Of a DNA stretch of 64,000 nucleotides, positions 1,008 through 26,000 are shown piece by piece (within the stretch, counting starts at the first letter, position 1; every line of letters begins with the position of its first letter). The DNA comes from Alphaproteobacteria bacterium (GTDB lineage: Bacteria; Pseudomonadota; Alphaproteobacteria; UBA828). The notes beneath the pieces are model-generated. The model was not told the DNA's origin. It searched no databases and saw nothing but the letters and a program-made list of their open reading frames with translations. A program made the position numbers and the translations under genes. The DNA lies in contig CBDCCI010000002.1 in NCBI GenBank assembly GCA_965214705.1, forward strand, positions 832,001 to 896,000, read 5' to 3'.

Positions 1008-2484
1008 GTTCCGCCTCCTCCGGCCGCAGGCCCACGAGCCGGGTCGCGGTGCTCGCCTCCCCGCCCGCCTCGTGCAGGGCCTTCTGCAGGAGCGCCCGCG
1101 CCGTTTCCAGCCGATACCGGGCGCTGGCCCGCATGTCGTCGATGGGCTGGAAGTCCGATGCCAGGGCCTCGCGAGCGGCGTCCCAGTCGCGGTGGTCCTC
1201 AAGCTGCACGCCCCCGAGGGCGGCTTCCGTCGCGGCGGCCCGCTTCGGCGTGGCCGCCATGCCGCCGAAGGCGACACGCGCGTGCGTGACGCGGCGCCCC
1301 TCGACGGTGAACCTGAAGGCACCCAGGACGCCAGAAATGTCCTGATCGAAGCGCTTGGAAATCTTGTAGCAGCGGAAGACGTGGTCGGACTCGAGGCGTG
1401 GCACGTCGATCCCGGTCACGAACTCGCCGGCCGCCCGGTCCTGCTTGCCGTAGTCGATGAAGAAGTCTTCGAGCGGCATGGACCGCGCGGCCTCGCCCCG
1501 GCGCAGGTGCAGCGTCGTGCCAAGCGCGATCAGCGCAGGCATTGAATCGCCGATCGGGGAGCCGTTGGCGATGTTCCCGCCAAGCGTCCCCACTGCGCGG
1601 ACCTGCTTGCCGCCGAAACGACGCAACAGCTCGACGAGATCGGGATCGATCGCCGCCATGGCGGGTTCCGCCTGCGCATGAGTGACGCCCGCTCCAAAAT
1701 AGAAGCCCTGCTCGGTCTCGCGCATCTCCGCCAGACCGGCCACCCGCCCCAGGAGGATGACCTTCGGCAGGGCCCGAAGCTGCTTGGTGATCCACAACCC
1801 GACATCCGTGGCGCCCGCGACCAGCGTGGCCTCCGGGTGCCGTGCGTAGAGGCGAGCGAGCGCATCGACCGTGGCCGGTGCCGCCAGGAACCCCGTCGCC
1901 TCGTCGCCGATGAAGAGGTCCTCGCCGTCGTCGAGCGCCGCCAGGCCTTCGACGGTGGCGGCACGGTGCGCCGCGAACGCGTCGCGCGGCGTTCCGGCGC
2001 ATGCTTCCAGCGCGGCATCCACGATGGGCCGGTAGCCGGTGCAGCGGCACAGATTGCCGGCGAGCGCGTCGTTCACCGCCTGCCGGTCGCAGCGCCCGCC
2101 TCCGTGATAGAGCGTGAAGAGACTCATCACGATGCCCGGCGTACAGAAGCCGCACTGGTTGCCATGATGCCTGAGCACCGCGTCCTGCACCGGGTGCAGT
2201 GCGCCGTCCGGCCCCACTAGGTCTTCGACGGCGACCAGCTCCTTGCCGTCGATCATGCCCAGCAGGCAGATGCAGGCGTTGACCGGCGCGTACTCCAGCC
2301 TGCCGTCCTGCAGGGTGCCGAGCGCCACAGTGCAGGCGCCGCAGTCACCCTCGGCGCAACCCTCCTTGGTGCCGCAGGCGTGGCGGCGCAGTCGCAGATA
2401 GTCGAGCAGGGTCTCGTTCGCGCCCACATCGGTCAGCGAGACGACCTCGCCGCGGTGGAGAAACCGGACCGACGCGCGCGTCAT
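997..2484 (-). CDS. xdhA: xanthine dehydrogenase small subunit (2x[2Fe-2S] + FAD)
   Basis: GTKEGCAEGDCGACTV, QCGFCTPG, GNLCRCTGY, AGATDVGLW, YKISKRFDQDIS. Confidence 0.95.
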   Translation of the reverse strand: MTRASVRFLHRGEVVSLTDVGANETLLDYLRLRRHACGTKEGCAEGDCGACTVALGTLQDGRLEYAPVNACICLLGMIDGKELVAVEDLVGPDGALHPVQDAVLRHHGNQCGFCTPGIVMSLFTLYHGGGRCDRQAVNDALAGNLCRCTGYRPIVDAALEACAGTPRDAFAAHRAATVEGLAALDDGEDLFIGDEATGFLAAPATVDALARLYARHPEATLVAGATDVGLWITKQLRALPKVILLGRVAGLAEMRETEQGFYFGAGVTHAQAEPAMAAIDPDLVELLRRFGGKQVRAVGTLGGNIANGSPIGDSMPALIALGTTLHLRRGEAARSMPLEDFFIDYGKQDRAAGEFVTGIDVPRLESDHVFRCYKISKRFDQDISGVLGAFRFTVEGRRVTHARVAFGGMAATPKRAAATEAALGGVQLEDHRDWDAAREALASDFQPIDDMRASARYRLETARALLQKALHEAGGEASTATRLVGLRPEEAERAA

Positions 2485-2487
2485 GCG

Positions 2488-2841
2488 TCAACTGCCGCGA
2501 TAGGTGGAGTAGCCATACGCGGAAAGTAGCAGCGGGACGTGGTAGTGGCCTTGCGGATCCGCGACGCCAAAGCGCACTGGCACGACATCGAGGAACGGCG
2601 GTTCGGGAAGCGGCCCGCCCGCGCGCCTTCGATAATCGCCCGCCATGAAGCGCAATTCGTAGGTGCCGGCGGCAAACGCCTCTCCTTCCAGCAAAGCGCC
2701 CTCGACCCGGCCGTCGTCGTTCGTCACGTCGGTCTTGAGGCGTTCTGCCGCCGCGCCGTCCAGGCGCCAGAGCTCCAGCGTCAATCCTCGCGCCGGCGTG
2801 CCCAGCGTCAAATCAAGGACATGCGTCGTCAACCGCCCGAT
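2488..2841 (-). CDS. uraH: 5-hydroxyisourate hydrolase (transthyretin-like)
   Basis: GRLTTHVLD N-terminus, HYHVPLL and C-terminal YRGS signature. Start is ATC at 2841 or TTG at 2832 (see findings). Confidence 0.93.
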   Translation of the reverse strand: MGRLTTHVLDLTLGTPARGLTLELWRLDGAAAERLKTDVTNDDGRVEGALLEGEAFAAGTYELRFMAGDYRRRAGGPLPEPPFLDVVPVRFGVADPQGHYHVPLLLSAYGYSTYRGS

Positions 2842-2911
2842 GGGTCTTCACTCCTCGGCTGCCGATTGCGTTTTGTCGTCTCTTCAAAACAACCGGCGAT
2901 TGTCTACGAAA

Positions 2912-2927
2912 TTTTGAGATCGCAAAA
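2912..2927. promoter_or_regulatory. candidate operator upstream of uraH-xdhAB
   Basis: TTTTGAGATCGCAAAA, a 16-bp palindrome with one mismatched pair, in an AT-rich intergenic patch. Confidence 0.4.
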
Positions 2928-3067
2928 GAACGGTATTTCGTGAATTGGCACTCGGGATGGACTGCTAAGCGCGCTGTTCTGCGGTCGGGCCGGCGCCATG
3001 CCGTTCTGCCGCTCTCGGTGCGTTCGCTGCCGTCCGCGCCAGCACGGCGCACCGATGTCAGCGCGAC

Positions 3068-4090
3068 TCAGGTAGTGACGACGATCTTGCCGCGCTGCAC
3101 GTTGGATTCCATGTAGCGATGGGCGTCCACGATCTGCTCGAGCGGGAAGGTCCGGTCGATGATCGGCCTCAACGCGCCCGAGGCCACCTCGTCGTGCACG
3201 AAGGCGAAGCAGGCGGCGCGCTTCTCCGGCAGGCGCATCGTGTCATACAGGCTGTGGAACTTGAAGAAGAGCCGCTTGGCGAGCATCGGCAGGACGGGGA
3301 TGTCGATCGGCTCGGTGCGGAGATTGCCGTAGTTGACGATGAGCCCATAGGGCTGCACCGCCGCGACGAGATCGCCAATGAAGGCACCGCCCACCGGGTC
3401 GTAGGCGATGGTGAAGCCCTGGCCGCCGGTAATCTCCTTCACGCGGGTCTCCAGGTCCTCCTCCTCGGTGGCGACGACGTGATCGGCGCCCGCGCCGAGC
3501 AGGAAATCAGCCTTATCGGACCTGCGTGTGGCCGCGATAACCGTGGCCCCGGCATTCTTCGCGATCTGCAACCCGGCAAGCGCGGCGCTGCTGCTCGCCG
3601 CCGTAACCAGAACGATGTCATCGGACGACACGCCGGCGTGGTCGACGAGCCCGCCCCACGCGGTGCCGTACTGGCACCAGATTGCGCCGGCCTCGACTAC
3701 CGAAATGCCGTCGGGATTGCGGGCGACGCAGAACGCGGGCACCACCGCGCTCTCGCCGTAGAGGCCGTACCTGTTGACCGAATCGTTGGTCCAGTTGCCC
3801 CACTGGTCCCACGAATTGAAGGGAACGGCACCTGCGCGCTCGCCGATGGAGAGACCCGAGACGCCGGGGCCCAGCGCATCGATCACGCCGCTTGCCTCGA
3901 TCCCGATGCGGGAAGGGAAGGTGGGGTTGGAGACGTAGGCGCCGTTCCGCAACATGATCTCCGCCCGGTTGAGTCCGATCGCTTCGATCTTGAGGCGAAC
4001 CTCGCCCTCCCCCGGCTCCTCGAGCGGCTCCTCCCGAACCTCCAGGACCTCCGGGCCGCCGTGTCTGGCAAATCGAACGATGCGTGGCAT
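3068..4090 (-). CDS. MDR-superfamily NADPH:quinone oxidoreductase-like / zinc-binding ADH family protein
   Basis: GGPEVL, AIGLNRAE, GIEASG, VTAASS, AHRYMESN..GKIVV; no Zn-binding Cys cluster. Confidence 0.85.
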   Translation of the reverse strand: MPRIVRFARHGGPEVLEVREEPLEEPGEGEVRLKIEAIGLNRAEIMLRNGAYVSNPTFPSRIGIEASGVIDALGPGVSGLSIGERAGAVPFNSWDQWGNWTNDSVNRYGLYGESAVVPAFCVARNPDGISVVEAGAIWCQYGTAWGGLVDHAGVSSDDIVLVTAASSSAALAGLQIAKNAGATVIAATRRSDKADFLLGAGADHVVATEEEDLETRVKEITGGQGFTIAYDPVGGAFIGDLVAAVQPYGLIVNYGNLRTEPIDIPVLPMLAKRLFFKFHSLYDTMRLPEKRAACFAFVHDEVASGALRPIIDRTFPLEQIVDAHRYMESNVQRGKIVVTT

Positions 4091-4280
4091 GCGATTGACC
4101 TCTCCCCGTCTCGGAAACTCTGTCGAACGTTTGGATGATAAGGCTTGAGAACAGCCGAGTGGAGCCCTAGCCCGGTCGAAAACGCCCGCACCACGCCCGC
4201 GGGCACACGATTTCGAGAAGGCGCCATAATTCCGTCGTATTCCCGTGAGATCGTCGCCTCAACGGCCGGGGTGACTGCTG

Positions 4281-5102
4281 TTGCGGCTTCTTCACAGGGG
4301 ACGATGGTTCGGAGGTCGCCCGCTCCGCTCTCGGTGGGCGCTCGTCGTGGGCTGCGCCATGGTCCTGATCGGCTCCGTGACGGCGGTCGCCCCGGCTGAC
4401 CCGGCTGAGTCCGACGAAACAACCCTTTTGCACCCGTCTCCCTGGGAAGCGGCCGACGCCGAAGCGCAATTCCTGGCCGACCGCATTCTTCGAAGGAGCG
4501 GCGACGGCTTGCTGTTGGGCAACGAGCGCCAGCGCGCACTCGGTCACGACGTCAAGCAGGCACTGTCGCTTATTCGCCGCGCGTATCCGGCGATGACGGA
4601 CATTCGCGTGCGAGAGGAATACAGGCCGGGGAGGATCATACTTGGCCTCGAGGGTGATCTAAAAGACACCGTCGTCGGCATGTGGAACGATGAGACCGCG
4701 CTCGCCCCACCGCCCACCGGGCACGCGGCCTTCGATGCCTTGAATGCGAAGTTGGGGCTCAAGGCTGCGGAAACGCTCCGCCATGGCGGTTACGCTTTTC
4801 TGGACGTGGACGAGCGCGTGGACGTGATAGAGGCGGCTTTTGCCTATTTCACGATCGATGGCGTCGACTACGCCCGGCCCGAGTGGATGGTAGGGGGTAG
4901 CCCCGATGTCGATGCGGCCAAGGTGCAGGGTACCTGGCACTTCGTCTTTCGCAACGCGTGGGGCGATTGCCCGGCCGGTTGCATCCACAGCGAGCTCTCG
5001 TTCTTCATTGTTGCAAACGGTGAGGTCCAGCGGATCGGGCGCGCAGAGGCGCGCAGCATGGACCCCTTCGCGACGCTTCTCGCAGACAGGGGCTGGCGCT
5101 AA
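4281..5102 (+). CDS. hypothetical exported protein with C-terminal WGDCPAGC motif
   Basis: 273-aa ORF filling the gap, natural composition, hydrophobic N-terminal segment; start uncertain (TTG 4281 or a later ATG). Confidence 0.7.
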   Translation: MRLLHRGRWFGGRPLRSRWALVVGCAMVLIGSVTAVAPADPAESDETTLLHPSPWEAADAEAQFLADRILRRSGDGLLLGNERQRALGHDVKQALSLIRRAYPAMTDIRVREEYRPGRIILGLEGDLKDTVVGMWNDETALAPPPTGHAAFDALNAKLGLKAAETLRHGGYAFLDVDERVDVIEAAFAYFTIDGVDYARPEWMVGGSPDVDAAKVQGTWHFVFRNAWGDCPAGCIHSELSFFIVANGEVQRIGRAEARSMDPFATLLADRGWR

Positions 5103-5129
5103 TCGGGATGGAGGCGGACCTGCGCCCGT

Positions 5130-6242
5130 TCAAGCGGTTGGCAGGTCGAAGTTGTAGAAGCGGGCGCAGTTGTTGAAGGTGATGTCCCGGCGCGTCTCCT
5201 CGTCCAGATGGCCGAAGACACGCTCGATCACCGCCATCGTATTCGGATACGTGCAGCGTGCGTGGGGAAAGTCCGAGCCCCACATGATGGTCTTCGGGTC
5301 GATCACGTCCAGCACCTTGTCGAGATAGGGATCGTCGATCAGCCCGTGATAGATCTGGCCCATGTACTCCTCGATCGGCCGCTTGATCTTGGGGATGTCC
5401 AGCGCCGGGCCAAAGTCGTCCTGAATCTGCTTGGCGCGGAACAGCCAGTAGGGCAGCCAGCAGACCTCGTACTCCGAGAGCACAAGCTTGAGGTTCTCGA
5501 AGCGGTCGAGGACGCCGCCGAAAATGAACTCGTTGGCGAGCACGGGTCCGGCCTCCGCCAAGACGCCGATGCAGGTGCGCGGCACGTTGATGCGCTCAGG
5601 CCCGTGCAGGACGAAGGGGTCGACCTCGTTGCCGGTGATGATGTGGAGAGTCACCGGCTGGTCCAGCTCCTGCGCGAGCGCCCAGAAGGGGTCGTAGTGC
5701 TTGTCCTGGAACGGCGGCCACTCGGGGCGGGAGTCGCAGTTGATGATCACGCTCTTCAACCCGCGCTTCGCGGTCCTCTCCAGCTCTTTGCAGGCCCAGT
5801 CGATGTCCGCCATGTGGATCATCGAGGTGCCGTACAGCTGCTTCGGCGCGTGGCTGCAGTATTCGGCGAGCCAGTCGTTGAACACCCTGCACAGGTCCTC
5901 GACCAGCCGGTCGTCCCGCGCGCGCATCGCATAGAGCATCCAGGTGGAGTTCACGATCTCGCCGACGACACCGTCCTCTTTCATGCACTCCAGCCGGATC
6001 GCGGGGTCGGTGCCCGAGCCCACGAGCTTCCGCTGCAGCTCCTCGTCGCCCTCCACGATCTCGTCCACGCGGACGTATTCGAACCCGGTGAAGAAGTGGT
6101 CGCCCTCGACGCCGGCATGCTCGGACACCATGCGCGGCACGGCATCGCCGTAGCGCGCGCCGAGCGGCTTCGACCACAGGTCCGCCGGCTCAATAACGTG
6201 GGAATCGCCCGAGATAACGGGCAGTTGTCCGTTCTCAGCCAT
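5130..6242 (-). CDS. amidohydrolase family 2 protein
   Basis: ISGDSHVIEP, vTLHI, MWGSDFPH, NCARFY. Confidence 0.88.
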   Translation of the reverse strand: MAENGQLPVISGDSHVIEPADLWSKPLGARYGDAVPRMVSEHAGVEGDHFFTGFEYVRVDEIVEGDEELQRKLVGSGTDPAIRLECMKEDGVVGEIVNSTWMLYAMRARDDRLVEDLCRVFNDWLAEYCSHAPKQLYGTSMIHMADIDWACKELERTAKRGLKSVIINCDSRPEWPPFQDKHYDPFWALAQELDQPVTLHIITGNEVDPFVLHGPERINVPRTCIGVLAEAGPVLANEFIFGGVLDRFENLKLVLSEYEVCWLPYWLFRAKQIQDDFGPALDIPKIKRPIEEYMGQIYHGLIDDPYLDKVLDVIDPKTIMWGSDFPHARCTYPNTMAVIERVFGHLDEETRRDITFNNCARFYNFDLPTA

Positions 6243-6272
6243 CGCTAACTTCTGAGCCCTGGTTTTGGAGAA

Positions 6273-7298
6273 CTAGTCTCTCAGCATGAGCAGCAGCTTC
6301 TGCCGGTAGTTGTCGGCGATCACCGCGAGGATGAGCAGGATGCCGATCACCACCAGCTGCATGTATGAGCTGATGCGCAGCAGATTCATGCCGTTCTGCA
6401 CGAGGATGATGAAGATGGCGCCGAGCACCACGTTGGGCAGCCGCCCGGTGCCGCCGAAGAGGCTGACACCGCCGATCACGCAGGCCGCGATGGAGAGCAG
6501 CGGGTACTCCTTGCCGATGTTGCCCTCGCCACTCTCCAGCCGGGCGGTCAGCATGATCGCGCCGATGGTCGTGATCGCGGCGGTCACGACGTAGGCCATG
6601 AACAGGTAGAAGCGCGTGCTGATGCCCGAGAGCTGCGAGGCCTTGAGGTTGCCGCCGAGAGCGTAGAGATAGCGCCCCATTCGGGTCCAGTTGAGGAATA
6701 CGTACATCAGGATGATGAACCCGATGGTGATCCAGATCGGGATCGGGACACCGATTCCCCTGCCGTAGCCGAGGACGTTCGCGAAGTTGTCCGGCATGCC
6801 GTAGATCGGCGTGCCGCCTGTAATCATGAGCGCGATGCCGAAGACGATGGACGACATCGCGAGAGTCATCATGAAGGGCGGCACCCGGAAGACCGCGACG
6901 CCGATACCGTTGACCACGCCGATGCCGGTGCCGGCGCCGAAGCCGGCGAGGCAGCCGATGAGGATCGCGGCCGTGGTGGCCTCGCCGCCGTCCCACACGC
7001 CCACCATGGTCATGGATGTGATGACCGAGACCAGGGCGAACATGACACCCACCGAGAGATCGAGGCCTGCGGTCAGCAGCACGACCATCTGGCCCATGGA
7101 GACCATGATCAGGTAGGTGGACTGGCGCGCGACCTGCATCAGGTTGCGGCTGCTGAAGAAGTTGTCCGTGGTGATCGCGAAGACGACGATCGCGATGAGG
7201 AGGAACCAGGGAAGCACGCCGGCACGGACGAAGATGAGCGTTGCGAAATACTCCGCTCTCTCCATCCACGTCCGCCGCTCCTGGGCGATATCGGCCAT
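6273..7298 (-). CDS. ABC transporter permease (RbsC/CUT2 type)
   Basis: Polytopic; GLDLSVG, GRYLYALGGN, IGGVSLFGGTG. Confidence 0.92.
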   Translation of the reverse strand: MADIAQERRTWMERAEYFATLIFVRAGVLPWFLLIAIVVFAITTDNFFSSRNLMQVARQSTYLIMVSMGQMVVLLTAGLDLSVGVMFALVSVITSMTMVGVWDGGEATTAAILIGCLAGFGAGTGIGVVNGIGVAVFRVPPFMMTLAMSSIVFGIALMITGGTPIYGMPDNFANVLGYGRGIGVPIPIWITIGFIILMYVFLNWTRMGRYLYALGGNLKASQLSGISTRFYLFMAYVVTAAITTIGAIMLTARLESGEGNIGKEYPLLSIAACVIGGVSLFGGTGRLPNVVLGAIFIILVQNGMNLLRISSYMQLVVIGILLILAVIADNYRQKLLLMLRD

Positions 7299-7314
7299 TA
7301 AGTCTCCCTCCGGG

Positions 7315-8889
7315 TCACGCCTCGTCCTCCTTCTCGAAGAAGTGGTGCAGCACCGTTTCCTCCGAGATTTCGGATTGATCGAGCTCGGCGCGCAGTTCGC
7401 CGCGGTACATCACGTAGGTGCGGTGTACGAGGTGCAGGATCTCCGGCAGGTCCGAGGAGATCAGGAGAACGCCCGCGCCCGCCTCGCAGAGATCGCGGAT
7501 GAACTCGTAGATCGCCACCCGCGCACCGACGTCGACGCCGACCGTCGGCTCGTCGAAGACGAAGAGCTTCACGTCGCGCACCAGCGACTTGCCCACCAGC
7601 ACCTTCTGCTGGTTGCCGCCGGAGAAGTGCTCCAGGTCGCGCTCGATGTTGAGCGGCATCAGGTCCAGCTTCTGCGCGATATCGCGCACGACCTTGCGCT
7701 CGTTGTTGCGGCGCAGGAACAGGCGGTTCGAGAACTTGCCCAGCCCGAGCGAGGGCAGTGACACGTTCTCCCGCACGTTCTGCATCATCACCAGGCCCTC
7801 TTGGCGGCGGTCCGAGGGCAGGTAGTAGAGGCCGCGGTCGAGCATCCGGCGGGTCCCAAGCTTGTTCACGTGCCTGGCCCGGTCGTAGACGACATCGCCG
7901 TCGAAGGTGATCTTGCCCGCCATGATCCGCTCGAGGCCGAAGCAGGCGCGGCCCAGGTCGGACTTGCCCGAGCCCACCAGGCCGGCGAGGCCGACCACCT
8001 CGCCGCGCCGCACGTTGATCGAGACGTCGTTCACGAAGTGCTTGGCGGTGACGAGGTTCTCGACCTCCAGCAGGGTTTCGGCCGGGTTGCGTTTGATATC
8101 CGGGAAGATCTGCTCGATGACGCGGCCGGTCATCAGCTCGACGAGCTTCTGGTCGGTGGCCTCCTCGACGGGGATCGTGTCGATATGCACCCCGTCGCGC
8201 AGCACGGTTATGCGGTCGCCGATCCGCTTGATCTCGTTCATCCGGTGGGTGATGTAGATGATGCCGATGCCTTCGGCCTTGATCTGCTCGATCAGGCCGA
8301 ACAGCCGGTCGGTCTCGCGTTCCGTGAGCGAGGCGGTCGGCTCGTCGAAGATCATGATGTTCGGCCGGGTGCGGAAGGCCTTGGCGATCTCCACCATCTG
8401 CTGTTCGGCGCGGGAGAGATACATCACCTCGTCGCGCGGCCTGAGCGGGAAGCCGAGGCGGTCGAGCGTCTCGCGCGCCTGCCTGGCGAGCGCCCGCTTG
8501 TTGAGCAGGCCCCCGCGCGTCAGCTCGTCGCCGAGAAACAGGTTCTCCTCGACCGTGAGGTGCGGCACCAGCGAGAATTCCTGGAAGACCGCGCTCACGC
8601 CGAGCTGACGCGCGTGGTGCACCGAGTGAATGACGGTCGGCTCGCCGCGCAGGTGGATGGTCCCGCCGGACGGCCTGTGCACGCCGGCAACGATCTGGAT
8701 CAGCGTCGACTTTCCCGCGCCGTTCTCGCCGAACAGCACGTGCACCTCGCCGGCCTGCACGTCGAAATTAACGCGATCCAGCGCGAGCGTGCCGGGAAAT
8801 TGCTTAGAGAGATTTTCTAATCTGAGAAGAGTGTCCCCGGAGCCCTGAGGCTCCGGGGACTCGTCAAACACTGCTGATGGTTCTGCCAC
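7315..8889 (-). CDS. ABC transporter ATP-binding protein (RbsA-type, two NBDs)
   Basis: GENGAGKS, FDEPT, SGGNQQK, DEPTVGVDVGA; GGAGG upstream of GTG. Confidence 0.93.
   Translation of the reverse strand: MAEPSAVFDESPEPQGSGDTLLRLENLSKQFPGTLALDRVNFDVQAGEVHVLFGENGAGKSTLIQIVAGVHRPSGGTIHLRGEPTVIHSVHHARQLGVSAVFQEFSLVPHLTVEENLFLGDELTRGGLLNKRALARQARETLDRLGFPLRPRDEVMYLSRAEQQMVEIAKAFRTRPNIMIFDEPTASLTERETDRLFGLIEQIKAEGIGIIYITHRMNEIKRIGDRITVLRDGVHIDTIPVEEATDQKLVELMTGRVIEQIFPDIKRNPAETLLEVENLVTAKHFVNDVSINVRRGEVVGLAGLVGSGKSDLGRACFGLERIMAGKITFDGDVVYDRARHVNKLGTRRMLDRGLYYLPSDRRQEGLVMMQNVRENVSLPSLGLGKFSNRLFLRRNNERKVVRDIAQKLDLMPLNIERDLEHFSGGNQQKVLVGKSLVRDVKLFVFDEPTVGVDVGARVAIYEFIRDLCEAGAGVLLISSDLPEILHLVHRTYVMYRGELRAELDQSEISEETVLHHFFEKEDEA
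8833..8860. repeat. perfect 12-bp inverted repeat within 5' end of the ATPase gene
   Basis: GTCCCCGGAGCC-CTGA-GGCTCCGGGGAC. Confidence 0.8.
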
Positions 8890-8936
8890 TTGCAGGGGCC
8901 TCCATCAGTCCCTTGTCTGTGGCGATCCGATCACGC

Positions 8937-10115
8937 CTAGTCGGTGCTGAACACGGGTGTCCAGCCCTTGGGCGCAAGCGTCGTGGTGGTGTCGAAGTCC
9001 GCGTGATTCTCCGGCGTCACCATGATCGCCAGCGGCTGCACATGCTCGATCATCCGGCCGGTGTCGTTGAACTCGGGCCGGCCGCCGGTGGCCGAGGGCT
9101 TGCCCTCGAGAATGCGGACCGCCTGGTCGATGGAGATCCGCGCCTGGATGATCATCTGATCGGTCGGCGCCATGGCGACACTGCCGCGGCCGACGAATTG
9201 ATGCATGCCGGGCGTGTAGTAGTAGGAGACGAGCTTGACCTCGTCCTGCAGACCCAGGTCACGGAGCGCAGCCATGCCGCCCTCGACCGCCGGCGCCACG
9301 CCAACGATGTAGTCGAGATCGACATCGCTACCCGAGGTCTGCGCCTGGATCACGTTCTCGACGAGGCTGAGCTGGGCCTCCTTGCTGGTCTGGGCCCACT
9401 TGGTCGAGATGACCTCGGCGTCGGAGCCGACGACCGCATCGTGACAGCCCTGGTTGCCGGCCACCGACCAGCTGGCTCCGGGCGGGCCCGGGAACCAGGC
9501 GATCTTGACGTTGCCGCTGCCTTCGGGGTGCTGGTCGGCGACCCACTTGCAGGCGATCCGGCCCATGCTGTAGTAGCTCTCCAGCGACTTGGCATCGACC
9601 TCGGTGTTGATCCCGTTGATCAGGTCGACAACCGGGATGCCCCTGGCACGCAGTTCATTGACCTGCTTGATGTTGCCCTCTGCCGAGATCGCCGAAAGCA
9701 CGAGAATCTCGGCGCCGTTCGCGATGCAGTCCTCGACCTGCGAGAGCTGCTTCTCCAGCTTGTCGTAGCCGCCGGCCTCGATCAGGGAGATCTTCTGGCC
9801 GAGGCGCTTGCCTTCCTCGATGATCCCGTAGGCCGCGCCGACCCAGTAGGAGTCCACGAGGTGGGGGAAGGACACGCAGATGTGGTGCTTCGCGTCTACC
9901 TCATCCGGCATCAGCGGTACGTAGTCGACGATCTCGAGATTCTGGTTGGCGGGATCGGTCCAGCATGCCGGATCGCCGTCCGTGCATGACGGGTTGTAAA
10001 TCTCGACTTGCGCCGGCCACCAGACGCCGTCGTCCTCTGCCTGCACGTCGGACGCGGCAAAGCCGGTGATGGCCATGCCCGCCGCGACGGCGGCGCCTAG
10101 AGTCAGTTTCCACAT
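8937..10115 (-). CDS. TorT-like periplasmic binding protein (class I SBP) of the ABC importer
   Basis: Signal peptide; ICVSFPHLVDSYW...YG..EE...EAGGY..LEKQLSQVEDC resembles the TorT pattern (LC..YP.LKDSYW...EAGGY..L..Q...C); directly upstream of ATPase and permease. Confidence 0.8.
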   Translation of the reverse strand: MWKLTLGAAVAAGMAITGFAASDVQAEDDGVWWPAQVEIYNPSCTDGDPACWTDPANQNLEIVDYVPLMPDEVDAKHHICVSFPHLVDSYWVGAAYGIIEEGKRLGQKISLIEAGGYDKLEKQLSQVEDCIANGAEILVLSAISAEGNIKQVNELRARGIPVVDLINGINTEVDAKSLESYYSMGRIACKWVADQHPEGSGNVKIAWFPGPPGASWSVAGNQGCHDAVVGSDAEVISTKWAQTSKEAQLSLVENVIQAQTSGSDVDLDYIVGVAPAVEGGMAALRDLGLQDEVKLVSYYYTPGMHQFVGRGSVAMAPTDQMIIQARISIDQAVRILEGKPSATGGRPEFNDTGRMIEHVQPLAIMVTPENHADFDTTTTLAPKGWTPVFSTD

Positions 10116-10149
10116 GGTCGTCTCTCCCTCTGGTCATGGACCTGTATCG

Positions 10150-10183
10150 GTGAGGGCGCCGGTACTGTCACCGGCGCCCTCAC
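10150..10183. repeat. perfect 14-bp inverted repeat in the leader of the SBP gene
   Basis: GTGAGGGCGCCGGT-ACTGTC-ACCGGCGCCCTCAC; no U-tract. Confidence 0.8.
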
Positions 10184-10260
10184 AATCACGTCTCCGTGTG
10201 GAGGGCATATTACGGTCACGCGACGAAAGCGCAAATGCCCTTTGCCCTCCATTTGGCTGG

Positions 10261-11301
10261 TCAGTGGGCGGGTGCCCGCATGTCCTCCGGCACCACCGCG
10301 CCGTTCTCCACGATCAGCTCGTCGTCGAGCCAGAGCGAGCAGCCCTGCATCGGCAGATCGAGGTGGCAGGGGGTGTCGTTCTCGCCGCCGAACTCGGTGT
10401 CAGGGCCCAGCGAGAACAGCACGTTGCCGTAGTGCGCGCGGCCGTCCATGCCGATGCCCGGCAGATCAGGCCGCCAGATGCAGTGATGGTTGAGTCCCCA
10501 GCCGATGTGCGAGACCGCATAGGCGCGCGGGTCGTTGTAGCCTTCGATGAAGCCCCGCAGGTGGTCGGCGCGGGCGCCGCCCGAGATCTCCGTCACCATG
10601 CCGTCGCTGATGTCGAAGGCGATGCGCTCGCCGGTGAACTCGCGCAGCGGGAAGACGATGTCGTCCGCCTCCATCACCACCCGCCCGTTCACGCCTTGCT
10701 CGGCAGCGAGAGTGGCGAGGAAGCCCCCCGGCCAGTGGTCCCAGCGGCCGGGCTCGGTGGTAAAGCCGTATTCCGTCAAGATGAACTTGTCGCCCAGCGT
10801 GTAAGTGACGTCCGTGCCGGCGTCGTTGGTGAAGCGCAGGCTCTGCGCCGCCTTTAGTCTCTGCTCCCCGGCTTCGACGCGCGTGCGCATCTCGGCGGTC
10901 GGGAACAGACGCTCCAGAATCTCCTCGGGCTCGACGACGAGCAGGATTCGGCTGCCCGCCTCCTGCATCGCGATCTGCTCGTGGGAGAAGAGCAGGAGCA
11001 TGTGGTCAACGACCATGTCGGCGTCCTTGCAGGTCTGCATCGCCTCCGGGTGCTTGCTCAGCGCGTTCTGCCCGATGTTGGCGATCCTGACCGCCGGGTC
11101 CTCCGCACCGTCCGAGGGGAGGTGCACGTCGGCCACGTCTGCGCCGAGGTCGCGCGCCGCCGCGAGCGACGCCTGCCTGTAGTTCCCGAGCTGATCGCCT
11201 TCCGAGAGGACGGCCACCGTCTCCCCCGGCCCCACCTCGCAAAGCTCGAGATTCTTGCGGAACAACTCGGTCAGTCGTGCCTGATTCTGCTGTGTGCCCA
11301 T
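10261..11301 (-). CDS. NicX-like 2,5-dihydroxypyridine 5,6-dioxygenase family (M29-like fold)
   Basis: RILLVVEP.E.L.R, TEYGF..EPGRWDHWP.GF, SHIGWGL, MDGRA.YGN.LFS.GP.TE.GG...TPCHLD follow Pseudomonas NicX as recalled, including the His/His/Asp Fe ligands. Confidence 0.82.
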   Translation of the reverse strand: MGTQQNQARLTELFRKNLELCEVGPGETVAVLSEGDQLGNYRQASLAAARDLGADVADVHLPSDGAEDPAVRIANIGQNALSKHPEAMQTCKDADMVVDHMLLLFSHEQIAMQEAGSRILLVVEPEEILERLFPTAEMRTRVEAGEQRLKAAQSLRFTNDAGTDVTYTLGDKFILTEYGFTTEPGRWDHWPGGFLATLAAEQGVNGRVVMEADDIVFPLREFTGERIAFDISDGMVTEISGGARADHLRGFIEGYNDPRAYAVSHIGWGLNHHCIWRPDLPGIGMDGRAHYGNVLFSLGPDTEFGGENDTPCHLDLPMQGCSLWLDDELIVENGAVVPEDMRAPAH

Positions 11302-11312
11302 GATTCCGGCTC

Positions 11313-12581
11313 CTATTCCGCCGCGCTCACCAGTGCGGTGTAGCCGCCGTCGCGCGGCACCCGGTTGCGCGAGGCGCTCTCGCGCAGCGCGTCCTCGCCG
11401 TCCTGGCGGCGCCTGTCGCGGGCCTCGTCGTCCTCGCTCAAGAGCTTATCGAGATAGTAGTTGAGAAGGTGGTGGATGGCGCGCTCCAGCCTCGCGGTCG
11501 GCCCCGGCCGGAAGGCGCGCGAGCCGACCCCGTTCTGCAGCGATTCCAGCATGGCCCGGTCCTCGTTCGCGACCAGCCGGATGAAGTCGGCATAGATCTG
11601 GTTCTTCTCCTCGAAGGCGGGCGCGTCGAAATACTCGTCCGGCAGCTGCGTGTAGATGATAATCCGGGTGGTGCCGTGGTCGATCGGATGCGCCACCCAG
11701 GGCTGGATCATGTCGTGGCGGCCGAAGATGTTCATGGTCGGCCTAATCCAGGTGGTGCAGGCGAACTTGTCGGTCACCTTGCCCTTGAGCCAAGGCATGG
11801 TGTCGAAGAGCGTCGCTCCCCTCGGCGCCATTGTGTAGCTCTCGTAGGCGGCGTTGTAGCCGTTCTTCTGCAGGTTGAAGCGGAAGTCGCTGACCGGGAA
11901 GTGGCCGCCGAAGGACTCCTTGTGGATCACACCCACGTGGTAGATGTCCATCAGGTTCTCGGGGATGAACTTCCAATTGCAGGGCACGTCGAAGACGTAC
12001 TTGTCCGACGTGCGCGTGTTCTCCGGTTGGAGGAAGGCGGCGAACTCCCTGACTCCGTCCTCGTCGAGGCAATCCGCGAGGCTGCGGCAATCCGGGTCGA
12101 AATTGACGAAGATGTAGCCGCCCCAGGTGTCGAGATTGACCCGGGGCAGCGCGCAGGTCGAAAAGTCGAAGCTCTCGACCTCCTTCGTGTGCGGCGCGCC
12201 CAGCAGCTTGCCCTCCAGGTCGTAGACCCAGGCGTGATAGGGGCAGCGGAAGCTCTTCAGGTTGCCTTCGCCGGTCGTGACCTCGACGCCCCGGTGCTGG
12301 CACACATTGCTGAAGGCGTTGAGCCGGCCCGCACCGTCACGACAGATCAGGAGCGGCTCGCCCGCGATGCGGATGGCCCGATAGTCACCCTCGTTCTCGA
12401 ACTCCTCCACCCGACCGACGCAGAGCCACTCCTTCATGAAGATGGCATCGACCTCGTAGTCGAAGATCTCCGGTGCCGTGTAGAGGAAGCCCGGCAGATG
12501 CCGCGCTTGGCCGAGGCCCCGGCGCGTCTTCCTGATCTCTTCGAGAATGCTCTCGTCGAGCGCTATGCCCCGATGCTGCAT
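11313..12581 (-). CDS. Rieske non-heme iron oxygenase alpha subunit
   Basis: CQHRG...CPYHAW Rieske motif; NWKFIPENLMDIYHVGVIH and ED...E..Q mononuclear Fe site. Confidence 0.92.
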   Translation of the reverse strand: MQHRGIALDESILEEIRKTRRGLGQARHLPGFLYTAPEIFDYEVDAIFMKEWLCVGRVEEFENEGDYRAIRIAGEPLLICRDGAGRLNAFSNVCQHRGVEVTTGEGNLKSFRCPYHAWVYDLEGKLLGAPHTKEVESFDFSTCALPRVNLDTWGGYIFVNFDPDCRSLADCLDEDGVREFAAFLQPENTRTSDKYVFDVPCNWKFIPENLMDIYHVGVIHKESFGGHFPVSDFRFNLQKNGYNAAYESYTMAPRGATLFDTMPWLKGKVTDKFACTTWIRPTMNIFGRHDMIQPWVAHPIDHGTTRIIIYTQLPDEYFDAPAFEEKNQIYADFIRLVANEDRAMLESLQNGVGSRAFRPGPTARLERAIHHLLNYYLDKLLSEDDEARDRRRQDGEDALRESASRNRVPRDGGYTALVSAAE

Positions 12582-12680
12582 CGCTCAACGCCCCCCTTGT
12601 TTGTCGATCACACCAGTATAGCGGCCCGCCTCCGGCGAGTCCGCAGGCAGCGATCACTATTCGACCCGCGCCGGGGCCGT

Positions 12681-13244
12681 TTACAGGTAGAACGCGCGCC
12701 CCTGGACGATGTCGGATTCCCCGCTGTCGAGGTGGTGTGGCCCGCTCACCCGGAACCAGTACTCGATCGTGCCGCCGAAATAGACCTCGTAGCAGTTGGT
12801 CTCTTGCACCGTGGCCCATCGGCCCGAATAGAGCGGGCCGTCATAGTGGTCGTATCCACGGCGCTTCCGCAGTTCGTGCACGGTGACGCAGCGGGTGCCA
12901 TCGTCGTTCACGGTCCACGTGCCGTCCGAGCGGTATTGTCCCTTCAGGGTCGTGAGCTGGGCCTTGATCGTTCCGTCGGGAAGGTAATACGTAACGAAGG
13001 TGCCGCCGCCGCCCGACATGGAGGTGGTATTGCCCGTCAACGTGGCGATGACCTCCTCGGCGGTAGCCGGGCGCAGGCCGCGCTCCTCCAGGGATTCCCG
13101 CAGCTGCTCGGTCACGCGCGCTTCCATTTCGACCAGGTTCGCTTGCACGACCTGGGCCTCTTCCGGGGTCAGCGGCTCGCCTCTCGGCATGCACGCGGCC
13201 AGCAGTGCGGCCGTGGCCAGCGCGATAACTATGCCGCCGCGCAC
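12681..13244 (-). CDS. hypothetical lipoprotein
   Basis: GTG at 13244 after GAGGG; VRGGIVIALATAALLAAC lipobox; beta-rich body with GTWTV..DG..C. Confidence 0.65.
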   Translation of the reverse strand: MRGGIVIALATAALLAACMPRGEPLTPEEAQVVQANLVEMEARVTEQLRESLEERGLRPATAEEVIATLTGNTTSMSGGGGTFVTYYLPDGTIKAQLTTLKGQYRSDGTWTVNDDGTRCVTVHELRKRRGYDHYDGPLYSGRWATVQETNCYEVYFGGTIEYWFRVSGPHHLDSGESDIVQGRAFYL

Positions 13245-13251
13245 GACGCCC

Positions 13252-14568
13252 TCACACCGGGCAGCGGGTGAGCAGGCGGCCCTCGTCGTCGAAGCGGAGC
13301 GCCTCGGCCTCGCCCAGCACCTCGCCTGCGCCATTCAGCTCCGCCGCGAGCGGCGGCGAGACCAGGACGGTATCGAGGTGCAGGGTCGAGCGGATCAGGC
13401 AGAGCCGCGCGTCCGCCCCGTCGAGGTGCCAGGACGTGCCGACGGCAGCCTGCAGCGCCGCCTTGTCGGTGGCGAGCACGGCGGGGATGCGCACCCGCTC
13501 GGTGAAGGTCGCCGTGCAGGCGTTCATGTACATGGCGTAGAGGTCTAGGTTGTCGGCGACTTCCTTGGTCGTGTAGTCGGCGTTGCCGACGCCGAGTCCG
13601 TTGCCGTGGGTCTCCGGTGTCAGCCCCAGCACCACCAGCTTGCTGATCACCGGCGCTGGCGGGTTCGGGCGCCCGCGGATGTCGAAGCGCGCGGTGACCG
13701 CCGGGTCCATGCCGGTGCCGGAGATGTTCTTGCCCAGCCTCTCCACCGCGAGCACGTCGATCTGCTCGAAGGGCAGTTTGGGAACGCAGCCCTTGGCGGT
13801 CTTCAGCAGGCGGGCGTCGGTCTCGTAGAAGGCCTCCGGCTCGGCGCCCTCGATGATCGCGGCCTCGCGCGCCGCGTTTTCGACGATGGCGATGCCGTAG
13901 GTGACCGGCGCCTCGCGAATGGCGATTGCCGCCCATTCGGGCAGCACCTCCATGTAGCCGCGCACGCCGAGGCGGTGCACGAAGCGCGCGCCCTCCGCCT
14001 TGCCGAGGCCGATGGCGGTCATCTTGGTGAGCCCGCTTTCCACCTCGCGATCGAACGACGTGTGGGACTTGACGCGGCCCACCACCAGCACCGCATCGGC
14101 CTCGAAGGCGTAGCGGTCGAAATGGACCCCGACGCCGGCTCTCGTCTCTCCCAGCCGCACCACCTCCATGCTGGCCTGGATGGGGCAGCCCATGGTCTCC
14201 TCGGTGAAGCCGAGCTCGGCCAGCAGCGTCACCTGGCTCGAAGCGACGGCGCCGCCGTGACTGCCCATCGCGGGCACGATGAAGGGGTCGAGTCCGCGCT
14301 CCTTGAGCCACGCGACCGCCGCCTCGACCACCGCGGGTTTGCTCCTGATGCCCCGGCTGCCGCAGGTGATCGCGACGCGAGAGCCCGCCGCAAGCTGAGT
14401 GAGTTGCCGCGATTCATCGAGCGCCGCACGCGTGGCGGCGGCGACATCGGGGAGCGCCGGCACGTCGGGATGGCGCAGCGCCACCGGCATCACTGGCGGC
14501 AGCCGCTCGTTCTCGAACTGCGGCAGCGCGATGGCTGGGAAGGTGGGGCTCGGCGTGTTCTGGGTCAT
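13252..14568 (-). CDS. lactate racemase (LarA)-like / DUF362-related protein
   Basis: VAITCGSRGI, PAMGSHGG, RVKSHT.F..ESGL.KM.AIGLGK, GKNISGTGMD, GNGLGVG.AD. Confidence 0.8.
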   Translation of the reverse strand: MTQNTPSPTFPAIALPQFENERLPPVMPVALRHPDVPALPDVAAATRAALDESRQLTQLAAGSRVAITCGSRGIRSKPAVVEAAVAWLKERGLDPFIVPAMGSHGGAVASSQVTLLAELGFTEETMGCPIQASMEVVRLGETRAGVGVHFDRYAFEADAVLVVGRVKSHTSFDREVESGLTKMTAIGLGKAEGARFVHRLGVRGYMEVLPEWAAIAIREAPVTYGIAIVENAAREAAIIEGAEPEAFYETDARLLKTAKGCVPKLPFEQIDVLAVERLGKNISGTGMDPAVTARFDIRGRPNPPAPVISKLVVLGLTPETHGNGLGVGNADYTTKEVADNLDLYAMYMNACTATFTERVRIPAVLATDKAALQAAVGTSWHLDGADARLCLIRSTLHLDTVLVSPPLAAELNGAGEVLGEAEALRFDDEGRLLTRCPV

Positions 14569-14617
14569 GATGGCACGATACACCAGAGGTTGGCCGGGCA
14601 GAACGCCGCGTTGTGGA

Positions 14618-15046
14618 TCAGTGCAGCGGTCCCGGCGGGCGTTCGCTGGTGTCGGGCGTCGGCTGGCGCTGGGCGGCCGGCCCGGCCTGATGGTGGACCA
14701 TGCGCCAGCCGCCCTCTTCGCGCGCGAAGACGTTGGTGGCGATCAGCCAACCCTGTTGCTCCAGCACCTCGCGGCAGATCACGAAGGCGCTCGGGCCGAG
14801 CACGAAAGCCCGCGGCCTCTCGCAGCGGATCTGCGGCGCGCCAGGGCCACCGAGGATCGCGGCCCAGCTTTCCATCACCGCTTCGCGCCCGACCAGCGCG
14901 TCCCAACCCGGATGGATGCAGGCGACCGTTGTCTCCGTGGCCCAGAGCGCATCCATCGCCGCGAGATCGCGGGCGGCGAAGGCCCGGTAGAACTCCTCGT
15001 TCGCGGCGAGCACCGCGTCCTCGTCCGACATGGCCCGCTCCGGCAT
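14618..15046 (-). CDS. SnoaL-like / NTF2 family protein
   Basis: AANEEFYRAF...AMDALW...CIHPGW..L.GRE.V..SW...ATNVF..E.G.W..VHHQA. Confidence 0.88.
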   Translation of the reverse strand: MPERAMSDEDAVLAANEEFYRAFAARDLAAMDALWATETTVACIHPGWDALVGREAVMESWAAILGGPGAPQIRCERPRAFVLGPSAFVICREVLEQQGWLIATNVFAREEGGWRMVHHQAGPAAQRQPTPDTSERPPGPLH

Positions 15047-15066
15047 GGCCGCTCCTCCCGCGCCGC

Positions 15067-16692
15067 TCAGCCGCGCAGCGCCTCGTATTGCTCGATGTAG
15101 GCCTCCGGATCGACCGTCACGTCGACCAATACCGGCCCGTCGTGCGCGAAGGCCTCCGTCAGCGCCGGCGTCAGCGGCTCGGTGGCGCCCACACGCCGGC
15201 CGCGGCAGCCCAAGCCGTCCGCAACGGCCGCGTGATCTATCTCACTGAAACGCACCCCCCGGCTCTCCCGCTGCTGCCGTTGTTGCTTGATGTCGATGAG
15301 GGAAAGCCGGGAATCGTTGAACACCACGACGGCGATGCGGCAGCCGAGGCGGGCCGCCGTCGCAAGCTCCGCAAGGCACATGTGCAGGCCGCCGTCGCCG
15401 GTCATGGCGATCACCGGGCGCGCCGGCTCCTCCAGCGCGGCGGCGATGGCCGCAGGCAGGGCAAAGCCCATGGTGGAGAGACCGTTCGACTTCAGCACGT
15501 CGTTGGGTTCCTCGGCCTGCCAGAGTCCCATGGCCGAGAACATGTGCGCGCCGGAATCCACCGTGAGTCGCGCCCGCGCGGGCGCTGCGTGGCGCACCGC
15601 GCTCACAACGTCCTCGGCCGTGCGCTGGCCCAGGCCGATCATCGCGAAACCGGAGCGAAGCCGGCTGCGCAGTGCAGCAATCTCAAGCTCCGACCAGCCC
15701 GCCGGCAGCGCGTCTTCCATGAGCGCCACGGCGGAGCGGTCGAGGGCACCGGTCAGCACTGCCGTCGGCGCGGCCGGATAGTCGTAGCCGTCGTGGGCCG
15801 CCAGCGCGAGGATCGGCCCCTCGAAGCGCCACGGGCCGGGCAGCAGCTCCACCGGATCGAGGCCGAAGAAAATGAGCAGGTCGGCTTTGTCGAGGCAGCG
15901 CGCGTCGGCCGAGGCTCCGGTGAAGCACCCGACCACCAGCGGGTCGGCGTCCGCGACCGCGCCCTTGGCCTTGTAGGTGGTCATCACCGGGCAGCCGAGC
16001 GACTGCACCAGCACCCTGAGCGCCGCGCTCGCCGCGCGGCCGCGCGCCTCCATGCCGGCGACGATGAGCGGGCGCTGGGCCTGGGCGAGCAGCCCGCGCG
16101 CCTCGGCCAGCGCGATCAGGTCGAAGTCCTTAGGCGCTTTCGTCGCCGTTCTCCGCCTCCGGGCTTCGGGCGCGGCGGTGCCCGTGGCGGGCGCAGTGGC
16201 TGCTGCCGACGTGAGGTCGAGCTGCACCGGCCCCGCTGGGTGGGCCATGGCCGTCTCGAGCAGCGTGCCAACCTCGCTGAGCCCTTCGCCCGGCTCGGGC
16301 CTGGCATAGCCCTTGACCAGCGGCGCGAAGAGGGCGCGCTGGTCGAAGCGCTGGTGCAGCGCGTGGTGGCCCGGCGCCGCCTCCGCCAGTGCATCGGTGA
16401 CGAGCAGCACGGGCGCCCGCTCCAGCGCGGCATAGGCGATGCCGTTGACGGCGCTGGCCGCGCCCGGCCCCACGCCCGTCACCACCACGCCGGGCGCGCC
16501 GCCGAGCTCGGCGGTGACCGCCGCCATCAGGGTGGCGGCGGTCTCGCCGTGGGTGAGCACGAAGTCGATACCTTCCGCCGCGAACGCGTCGATGACATCG
16601 AGGCTGCTGGCCCCGCCCGGCACGCCGAAAGTGCGGCGCACGCCCCGCTCCCGGCACGCCGCCGCGAGGCCCTGGGCGAGGGTTTCAGCCAT
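15067..16692 (-). CDS. thiamine pyrophosphate-binding enzyme (acetolactate synthase-like)
   Basis: FGVPGG, HGE, GPG, SNGLSTMGFALPAA, GDGG...VFND TPP motif. Confidence 0.88.
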   Translation of the reverse strand: MAETLAQGLAAACRERGVRRTFGVPGGASSLDVIDAFAAEGIDFVLTHGETAATLMAAVTAELGGAPGVVVTGVGPGAASAVNGIAYAALERAPVLLVTDALAEAAPGHHALHQRFDQRALFAPLVKGYARPEPGEGLSEVGTLLETAMAHPAGPVQLDLTSAAATAPATGTAAPEARRRRTATKAPKDFDLIALAEARGLLAQAQRPLIVAGMEARGRAASAALRVLVQSLGCPVMTTYKAKGAVADADPLVVGCFTGASADARCLDKADLLIFFGLDPVELLPGPWRFEGPILALAAHDGYDYPAAPTAVLTGALDRSAVALMEDALPAGWSELEIAALRSRLRSGFAMIGLGQRTAEDVVSAVRHAAPARARLTVDSGAHMFSAMGLWQAEEPNDVLKSNGLSTMGFALPAAIAAALEEPARPVIAMTGDGGLHMCLAELATAARLGCRIAVVVFNDSRLSLIDIKQQRQQRESRGVRFSEIDHAAVADGLGCRGRRVGATEPLTPALTEAFAHDGPVLVDVTVDPEAYIEQYEALRG

Positions 16693-16725
16693 GCGGGCCG
16701 CCGCCGTTACCTCCGAGCCGCGCCG

Positions 16726-17769: not shown

Positions 17770-17789
17770 GGGGTCCTCCGGTGATTGGT

Positions 17790-18845: not shown

Positions 18846-18849
18846 GGGC

Positions 18850-20639: not shown

Positions 20640-20654
20640 GGCCGTGCGAAGAAT

Positions 20655-20680
20655 GACCGGCGGGCTTCAGCCCGCCGGTC
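20655..20680. repeat. REP-like perfect 12-bp hairpin between SBP and permease genes
   Basis: GACCGGCGGGCT-TC-AGCCCGCCGGTC. Confidence 0.8.
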
Positions 20681-20721
20681 TCTTCAAGCGAGGTCTAACG
20701 CTATTCCGGATTCCGCCGGTC

Positions 20722-22296: not shown

Positions 22297-22445
22297 CTCC
22301 CTGAGTGGCTTGCGGAACGCCGCACGGCGCCGTTGCCGCGGCGGCGTCGGCTCACGGCCGGCGAGTATGCGTCATCGCCCGCGGGCCAAGCAAGGAGTGG
22401 CCCGCAGTGTGCCGTGCAGATCGTGACCGCGGCTAAAATCGCCGG

Positions 22446-25990: not shown

Positions 25991-26000
25991 GTCGGTGCCC

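Follow-up and report, generated by a model that had tools for sequence, protein, structure and literature searches.

Do six adjacent genes, running from a Rieske oxygenase and a homologue of the ring-cleavage dioxygenase NicX through an ABC importer to an Amidohydro_2-fold protein, encode a single pathway for one N-heterocycle, or are they parts that are inherited separately? This question arises at positions 5130–12581 of a 64 000 nt stretch of an alphaproteobacterial genome (G000:C3:832001–896000, the whole of which is referred to here as the window; the genome is 7.9 Mb in three contigs, 67% GC), for which a first-pass annotation had proposed one new pathway. Nitrogen-rich nutrients with a pyridine ring, among them nicotinate, picolinate and the pyridine betaines of plants and animals, are common, and the routes to 2,5-dihydroxypyridine known to us use molybdenum, flavin or multi-component oxygenases. 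We found that the proposal stands for the pairing of the Rieske gene with the NicX-like gene, which is co-conserved, and fails for the six genes as one co-inherited unit. On balance, we judge it somewhat likelier to be right than wrong that the region consists of two separately inherited catabolic modules, designated A (ring opening) and B (import, together with an enzyme resembling the AROs, a recently defined oxygenase superfamily). In order of transcription, the features are:

11313–12581, minus strand: module A, enzyme 1; Rieske plus Ring_hydroxyl_A protein, an alpha-only non-haem iron oxygenase, 422 aa (PF00355 4e-22, PF00848 2.5e-22)
10261–11301, minus strand: module A, enzyme 2; homologue of the NicX-type Fe(II) ring-cleavage dioxygenase, 346 aa (PDB 7cn3 match)
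10116–10260, minus strand: inter-module spacer, 145 nt, in which a promoter-like motif is accompanied by a short palindrome and a GC-rich hairpin
8937–10115, minus strand: module B; TorT-like periplasmic binding protein of a CUT2-type ABC importer, 392 aa (PF13407 2.4e-24)
7315–8889, minus strand: module B; double-domain ABC ATPase, 524 aa (PF00005 twice)
6273–7298, minus strand: module B; BPD_transp_2 ABC permease, 341 aa (PF02653 4e-26)
5130–6242, minus strand: module B; Amidohydro_2-fold protein (AH2), 370 aa (PF04909 3e-21)

The coordinates bear out the earlier description of six co-oriented genes with short gaps (11, 145, 47, 16 and 30 nt in the order listed), the first gap separating the Rieske stop codon from the NicX-like start and the largest coinciding with the module border. 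The GC content at third codon positions (GC3) is 0.89–0.93 in all six, which is usual for real genes at 67% GC. Their co-orientation says little, because every confident gene from ~28100 to the start of the window, and then for ~10 kb beyond it, lies on the minus strand. Composition is near-identical across the three contigs of the genome (tetranucleotide r = 0.9988–0.9998), and its nearest relatives among public genomes are metagenome-assembled genomes of uncultured Alphaproteobacteria and Rhodospirillales.

Distribution of the two modules

Conservation of the neighbourhood was assessed with tblastn in 80 loci encoding NicX-like relatives of 57–99% identity, divided into 18 close loci (NicX identity at least 81%) and 62 distant ones. 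The NicX-like gene is immediately preceded by a Rieske gene, on the same strand and with a gap of approximately 3–87 nt, in 51/80 loci, including 33 of the 62 below 80% NicX identity, and the loci with this arrangement span the Alpha- and Gammaproteobacteria, Binatia and Myxococcota. The Rieske gene is elsewhere in the locus in 11 of the 80, and there is none in the remaining 18, three of which have no upstream DNA. It is this Rieske–NicX pair that is the novel element of the region; it is widespread and unstudied, and no description of an alpha-only Rieske oxygenase paired with NicX was found in the literature searched.

In the distant loci, the pair is found clustered with a gene for a NicD-like alpha/beta hydrolase (24 loci) or a maleate-isomerase-like protein (9 loci). 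Both genes follow the NicX gene within ~900 nt in three gammaproteobacterial loci (L026, L028 and L040), and they stand directly behind it in relatives that are 66–69% identical, an arrangement that fits N-formylmaleamate as the product. The gammaproteobacterial array runs in the order CoxG, FAD, FeS and MoCo subunits, a second Rieske paralogue, SDR, DUF3891, the pair, NicD-like, maleate-isomerase-like. In the genome studied, homologues of the second Rieske protein, DUF3891 and the Mo subunits of this array are scattered; the gammaproteobacterial maleate-isomerase-like query found no match in the genome and the NicD-like hydrolase found matches of just 26–30% identity. No NicD- or NicE-like gene was present in the flanks scanned (upstream to 26008 and ~10.7 kb past the window start), and family searches of the rest of the genome turned up a single match to the Amdase family, located on another contig, and 22 to the isochorismatase family. 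At C3:1.83 Mb, genes for an isochorismatase and an alpha/beta hydrolase, considered as candidates for the lower pathway, lie beside a RidA gene, an arrangement that we take to be reminiscent of the Rut pyrimidine pathway.

The distribution of module B is quite different. The four genes (binding protein, ATPase, permease and AH2) follow the pair in 13 of the 18 close relatives (in another the contig breaks off within the binding-protein gene, and four loci do not have them), and are absent from behind the pair in all 62 distant loci. They also occur alone. In G048, a genome from the same family assembled in one 3.3-Mb contig, the pair is at C1:1035380–1037693 and module B, with the same gene order and 86–91% identity, is 1.14 Mb away at ~C1:2171900–2176900. 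Similarly, in G403 (the genome of locus L022) module B is on contig C7 in the same order with 81–87% identity, and the pair is on another contig at 74% and 69%. Here AH2 is 82% but NicX only 69% identical to the window proteins, and these unequal values suggest different histories. In G222 and G351, the ABC genes (68–78%) adjoin an operon for an alpha/beta hydrolase, RidA, Amidohydro_1, AH2 and EamA, and their homologues of the NicX-like and Rieske proteins are encoded at other places, apart from one another as well. A search of two pair-carrying gammaproteobacterial genomes found no homologue of AH2 at E <= 1e-30, and G367 and G006 have AH2 homologues of 62–67% identity but only distant NicX homologues (41% and 36%, respectively).

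The genome studied also includes, at C1:2170352–2172571, orthologues (66–74%) of an alpha/beta hydrolase and an Amidohydro_1 protein whose genes are in one operon with an Amidohydro_2 gene in genus g3. These are on contig C1 and AH2 is on C3; the gene set of genus g3 is therefore split across two contigs here.

The spacer between the modules was aligned for the window and 13 relatives. A TTTGC motif, with TAATAT or a close variant of it ~22 nt further downstream, is retained in all 14 sequences; a GC-rich hairpin upstream of the binding-protein gene is also kept, and the stretch right after the NicX stop codon is variable and includes insertions. The palindrome CACGGAGACGTG is exact in the window and nine relatives and varies in L013, L015, L017 and L018. 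A TTTGC...TATTAT motif also precedes the binding-protein gene of the stand-alone module in G048, and we infer that the motif is module B's own promoter; a scan for consensus promoters and terminators flagged nothing in this spacer or ahead of the Rieske gene.

The region is also present in RNA libraries. Contigs from four metatranscriptome runs belonging to three studies, in which the source was labelled as sponge, marine or coral metagenome, map to it, and those of one run fill 30/30 bins over positions 4000–15000. One contig (11190–11719) crosses the Rieske/NicX junction. The contigs on the binding-protein gene are the deepest in three of the four runs, though contig depth cannot rank genes. 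DNA carry-over into such libraries is possible, and the uncovered parts in runs X2, X3 and X6 carry no meaning.

Predicted enzymes and importer

The NicX-like protein matched none of the Pfam or NCBIfam models scanned; with phmmer it matched NicX (PDB 7CN3) with E 6.6e-81 over residues 7–343. According to the available text of PMC7910607, the iron ligands of NicX are His265, Ser302, His318 and Asp320, and the substrate is contacted, through a hydrogen-bond network, by Glu177, His189 and His105, with Leu104 and Cys76 nearby; Glu177 and His189 hold N1 and O1 of dihydroxypyridine. All four iron ligands align to identical residues, which are invariant in 19 orthologues as His265, Ser297, His313 and Asp315, and the equivalents of Glu177 and His189 are present and likewise invariant in the 19 Rieske-paired orthologues. 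Judged by its alignment, the protein is a true NicX homologue with a predicted active site that is intact, in agreement with the first-pass identification.

The best solved relative of the Rieske protein is CntA (6y9c, 5e-40), and classical dioxygenase alpha subunits match its N-terminal half only. Invariant in the 19 orthologues are the Rieske ligands Cys94, His96, Cys113 and His116, the bridging Asp212, and the iron ligands His215 and His220. A quaternary-amine substrate was considered. The available text of PMC7948474 describes the residue at CntA position 203 in group V enzymes as a cation-pi aromatic one in clade Va and as Asn in clade Vb. The position of CntA Tyr203 is occupied by Leu210 in the window protein, and this Leu is invariant in the 19 orthologues. 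Since the group V markers are missing, nothing in the Rieske sequence indicates a quaternary-amine substrate and that idea was dropped; with it goes one argument for an N-methyl substrate or for the N-oxide substrate suggested earlier. A single complex prediction with the Rieske and NicX-like proteins scored 0.00 and was uninformative either way. In G006, 13 matches to the Rieske family at ~40% identity represent a paralogue expansion.

Turning to module B, the binding protein scored 283 bits with the NCBIfam TorT model NF008185 (cut-off 200) and 211 with TIGR02955 (cut-off 310). Its structural model (pLDDT 88) has 4yhs as the best match (Z 41.9, 43% identity), compared with Z 35 and 31–32% identity for TorT (3o1i/3o1h), and many of its >1,200 homologues at E <= 1e-20 are labelled "protein TorT" at source. 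The ATPase resembles AraG, XylG and RbsA (~1e-125 to 1e-140, all below the curated cut-offs) and the permease resembles RbsC, AlsC and AraH (~1e-57, below the cut-offs). The labels "TorT" and "amidohydrolase" are both likely to be misleading for the genes of this module.

The role of a PicC-type decarboxylase was considered for AH2, whose nearest solved relatives are the dinuclear (diiron) oxygenases PtmU3 (6omp, 1.1e-38 over residues 9–363) and DitZ (4e-19), and decarboxylases (LigW, ACMSD) match only at 6e-12 or weaker. The AROs were defined in a 2026 paper by an N-terminal, metal-binding D-x-H and a C-terminal D-x-P-H-x-D/E motif, the latter being absent from the characterised hydrolases and decarboxylases of the fold, as stated in the available text of PMC13154177. 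The first motif is found in AH2 as D-S-H (residues 13–15) and in 30 of the 31 aligned homologues of at least 42% identity, L125 having G-S-H. The second reads D-F-P-H-A-R (residues 324–329) and ends in Arg rather than Asp or Glu; the Arg is retained in 31/31 of these homologues, and at no more than 34% identity homologues have Asp, Glu or Asn at this position. When 1.84 billion cluster representatives were searched, 208 matched at E <= 1e-30, and the motif was examined in the best 150. Among the 114 of these in which it was readable, Arg was found in 20, of which 17 rank among the first 28, and Asp or Glu in 59. Arg is thus concentrated among the nearest homologues, and AH2 therefore lies in a discrete Arg-variant clade beside the known oxygenases, which makes this clade a test of a signature position in the superfamily.

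AH2 paralogues from another family (53–56% identity) are encoded beside (L118) or three genes from (L121) a reductase with Fer2 and NAD_binding_1 domains and a DmmA-like N-terminal domain, and this proximity argues for redox chemistry in AH2. The neighbourhoods of these paralogues also include alpha/beta hydrolases, an Amidohydro_1 and an SDR, and a CUT2 ABC operon encloses one of the paralogues. Scans of the flanks detected neither a Rieske ferredoxin gene nor a reductase gene beside the window copy of AH2. The Binatia genome G405 includes 27 ARO-like Amidohydro_2 matches, a further paralogue expansion, and several of the expansion matches in G006 and G405 have one in-frame stop codon.

Two modules or one pathway

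In the two-module reading, the alpha-only Rieske enzyme of module A would draw electrons from a reductase encoded elsewhere and hydroxylate a pyridine or pyridone, perhaps removing a carboxyl group in the process, and 2,5-dihydroxypyridine or a very close analogue would result. This compound would then be cut at its C5–C6 bond by the NicX-type Fe(II) dioxygenase, releasing an N-formylmaleamate-type product. Module B, transcribed from its putative own promoter, would import a small polar compound via the TorT-like protein and the CUT2 ABC transporter, and the ARO-like AH2 would act on the imported compound, most likely in a redox reaction (either hydroxylation or oxidative demethylation) rather than a hydrolysis or decarboxylation. 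What is observed here are the identities of the genes, their active-site residues, the way the modules are distributed and their occurrence in RNA libraries; the chemistry of the Rieske step, the oxygenase nature of AH2, the promoter and the two substrates are proposals. Were this reading correct, the single-subunit Rieske enzyme fixed beside NicX would provide numerous uncultured bacteria of marine, sponge-associated and groundwater origin with an entry to the 2,5-dihydroxypyridine pathway that is apparently common yet unstudied.

Several points weigh against this reading, either against the separateness of the modules or against the chemistry proposed for them. Thirteen species-level relatives share the order of the six genes, which could reflect selection for joint function besides shared ancestry, and each of the four family genomes sampled has both modules somewhere. 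The homologues of the NicX-like and Rieske genes do not adjoin each other in genus g3. The RNA evidence, consisting of short assembled contigs, documents presence only and neither strand, transcript ends nor level. For module A, family scans of the flanks detected no gene for a beta (small) subunit, ferredoxin or reductase beside the Rieske gene, there is a single NAD_binding_1 match genome-wide (C2:357739), and no clear NicD/NicF/NicE set that would process the ring-opened product is near the pair in the genome studied. In the NicX-like protein, His105 is replaced by Phe, invariantly in the 19 Rieske-paired orthologues, and Cys76 by Ile, which is absent from the Cys76 variants seen for NicX in the available text of PMC7910607. 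For module B, with Arg in place of Asp/Glu the metal site may differ from that of known AROs, and AH2 may not be an oxygenase at all.

The strongest competitor is that all six genes serve one pathway for a single imported N-heterocycle, with the ABC transporter importing it, AH2 and the Rieske enzyme converting it to 2,5-dihydroxypyridine, either along PicB/PicC-like lines or by taking off an N-methyl or N-oxide group oxidatively, and the NicX-like enzyme opening the ring. The conserved order favours this, as it persists in 13/18 close relatives down to 81% NicX identity, and so do the co-occurrence of the modules in the four family genomes, the co-orientation and short gaps, and the contigs over all six genes in one RNA run. 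Rieske- and AH2-family paralogues are also within ~3 kb of each other in L120, from another family, and ~8 kb in L125, and 13 Binatia loci have canonical ARO-type Amidohydro_2 genes at a distance of a few kb from Rieske–NicX pairs. However, G048 and G403 keep module B apart from the pair, the pair occurs without an AH2 homologue at E <= 1e-30 in the two gammaproteobacterial genomes and AH2 occurs with only distant NicX homologues in G367 and G006, the identities in G403 point to different histories, the border is marked by the 145-nt gap with its conserved promoter-like motif, and AH2 is not decarboxylase-like. Hence we regard a single pathway as rather unlikely, and the narrower proposition that module B feeds module A in this lineage as a real possibility that probably does not hold. 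More generally, strings of genes in long co-oriented arrays should not be read as single pathways without checking how the parts travel.

A different challenge concerns the substrate of module A. The Phe105 clade might open another Rieske-made ring, such as a substituted pyridinediol or other heteroaromatic diol, instead of 2,5-dihydroxypyridine, which would make ring cleavage by module A a new chemistry rather than a variation on the maleamate route. The replacements at positions 105 and 76 are in its favour, His105 being listed among the residues that set the substrate specificity of NicX (PMC7910607, available text), as are the missing NicD/NicF/NicE set and the fact that the linked neighbour in this lineage encodes a nickel-pincer isomerase (see below) and not a deformylase. 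Yet the same source reports that the NicX variant H105F still yields product (H105A is dead, and C76Q and C76E are inactive), and in relatives 66–69% identical the NicD-like and maleate-isomerase-like genes are directly behind the pair. Because the iron ligands and Glu177/His189 are retained and H105F is active, the clade probably still cleaves 2,5-dihydroxypyridine or a close analogue, and we consider cleavage of another ring improbable.

Going further than the two-module reading, it is conceivable, though we think it unlikely, that the modules have been joined in this sponge-associated lineage into a new route for a small charged pyridine, for example an N-methylated or N-oxidised pyridine carboxylate. 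The compound would be captured by the TorT-like protein, the Arg-variant ARO-like enzyme, a metallo-oxygenase of a new kind, would remove or oxidise the N-substituent or a side group, and the Rieske enzyme would form the pyridinediol for ring opening by the NicX-like enzyme. Independently of such a joined route, the Arg-variant clade may be a new ARO functional class, tied to ABC importers and ferredoxin-reductase partners.

Neighbouring genes and known systems

Upstream of module A in this lineage only, there is one linked neighbour:

13252–14583, minus strand: nickel-pincer-cofactor-dependent isomerase, LarA family group 22 (NF052515 471.6 bits, cut-off 400)

A homologue of this gene is upstream of the Rieske gene in 16 of the 18 close loci (with a gap of 72 nt in L004) and in none of the 62 distant ones, and a LarC-type nickel insertion gene is elsewhere in the genome (C1:2543686–2544804). 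In the window, an insertion of ~585 nt separates the LarA-like and Rieske genes and encodes, at 12681–13244 on the minus strand, a small protein that carries a lipoprotein-type signal (LAAC) and weakly matches DUF995. Among the relatives, L005, L007 and L008 share the insertion and L004, which is 99% identical, does not have it; an RNA-library contig joins 12648 to 13259, bypassing it. Further upstream, a co-oriented array (14618–26008) includes genes for SnoaL, a TPP enzyme (acetolactate-synthase-like), a Zn-ADH, a second ABC transporter whose SBP_bac_8-type binding protein is unusually long (524 aa), a second TPP enzyme and hydantoinase B. On the plus strand, an ORF of 273 aa (4281–5102) is convergent on the AH2 gene; it matches no family, its GC3 is lower (0.77), and homologous ORFs form a cluster from seven related loci.

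Downstream, a molybdenum hydroxylase gene begins 2.6 kb from the six genes (997–2484 onward) and was considered as the missing NicAB or PicA. It scored 603 bits with the XdhA model TIGR02963 (cut-off 467) and lies in a complete-looking purine breakdown cluster on the same strand, which occupies window positions 1–4090 and ~10.7 kb past the window start (L084 9300–20000) and includes a quinone oxidoreductase, HIU hydrolase, XdhA, XdhB, XdhC, a BMP-type ABC transporter, OHCU decarboxylase and guanine deaminase. Therefore, this enzyme is xanthine dehydrogenase (XdhAB) and not an analogue of NicAB or PicA, and the candidate was rejected. The first-pass observation that NicAB, NicC, NicD, NicF and NicE are not seen in the unit or its flanks was confirmed, and its expectation that the cluster would not map onto the described nic or pic pathways was borne out.

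The nic pathway of Pseudomonas putida uses NicAB, NicC and NicD/NicF/NicE, for which neither the unit nor its flanks have counterparts. The window protein shares with NicX of P. putida KT2440 (PDB 7CN3) full-length homology, the four iron ligands and Glu177/His189. It differs in having Phe for His105, fixed in the Rieske-paired clade, and Ile for Cys76, in being paired with a Rieske oxygenase where P. putida NicX is fed by NicAB/NicC, and in having no NicD, NicF or NicE gene alongside in the genome studied. The pic cluster of Alcaligenes faecalis JQ135 (picolinate to fumarate) is alike in combining a Rieske oxygenase, an Amidohydro_2 enzyme and a NicX-type dioxygenase. However, PicB, as described in the available text of bioRxiv 10.1101/530550, has four components (large and small oxygenase subunits, ferredoxin and reductase), the first three of which form a single large fusion protein in Alphaproteobacteria, whereas here there is a lone 422-aa alpha subunit, a distinction drawn from that description of PicB. 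PicC is a decarboxylase and AH2 is ARO-like, on comparison with solved decarboxylases and with PicC as described, and PicA, PicE, PicF and PicG, as far as the available description goes, have no counterparts in the unit. A homarine or trigonelline route was also ruled out, as the homarine operon homABCDER and the TgnAB system compared with it are flavin-type and, in the available text of PMC13236597, include no Rieske or NicX enzyme.

CntA, the nearest solved relative of the Rieske protein, has the same alpha-only architecture, but its bridging carboxylate is Glu205 where the window protein has Asp212 (PMC7948474, available text), and group V enzymes as described there have a cation-pi Tyr or Phe, or Asn in clade Vb, in place of the invariant Leu. 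The binding protein shares the subfamily fold of the TMAO-binding TorT (TorS/TorR system; PDB 3O1H/3O1I) and passed one NCBIfam TorT model, but it failed the second and has an ABC ATPase and permease as neighbours rather than the TorS kinase; it is nearer to 4YHS, an ABC transporter binding protein from Bradyrhizobium. Finally, AH2 is like the AROs (PtmU3, DitZ, SfbO and AibH2; PMC13154177, available text) in its PF04909 fold, its D-x-H and D-x-P-H motifs and the location of paralogues near a ferredoxin-reductase-type gene. It is unlike them in having Arg at the sixth motif position where those described have Asp or Glu, which marks a discrete clade, and in being encoded by the last gene of an ABC importer operon.

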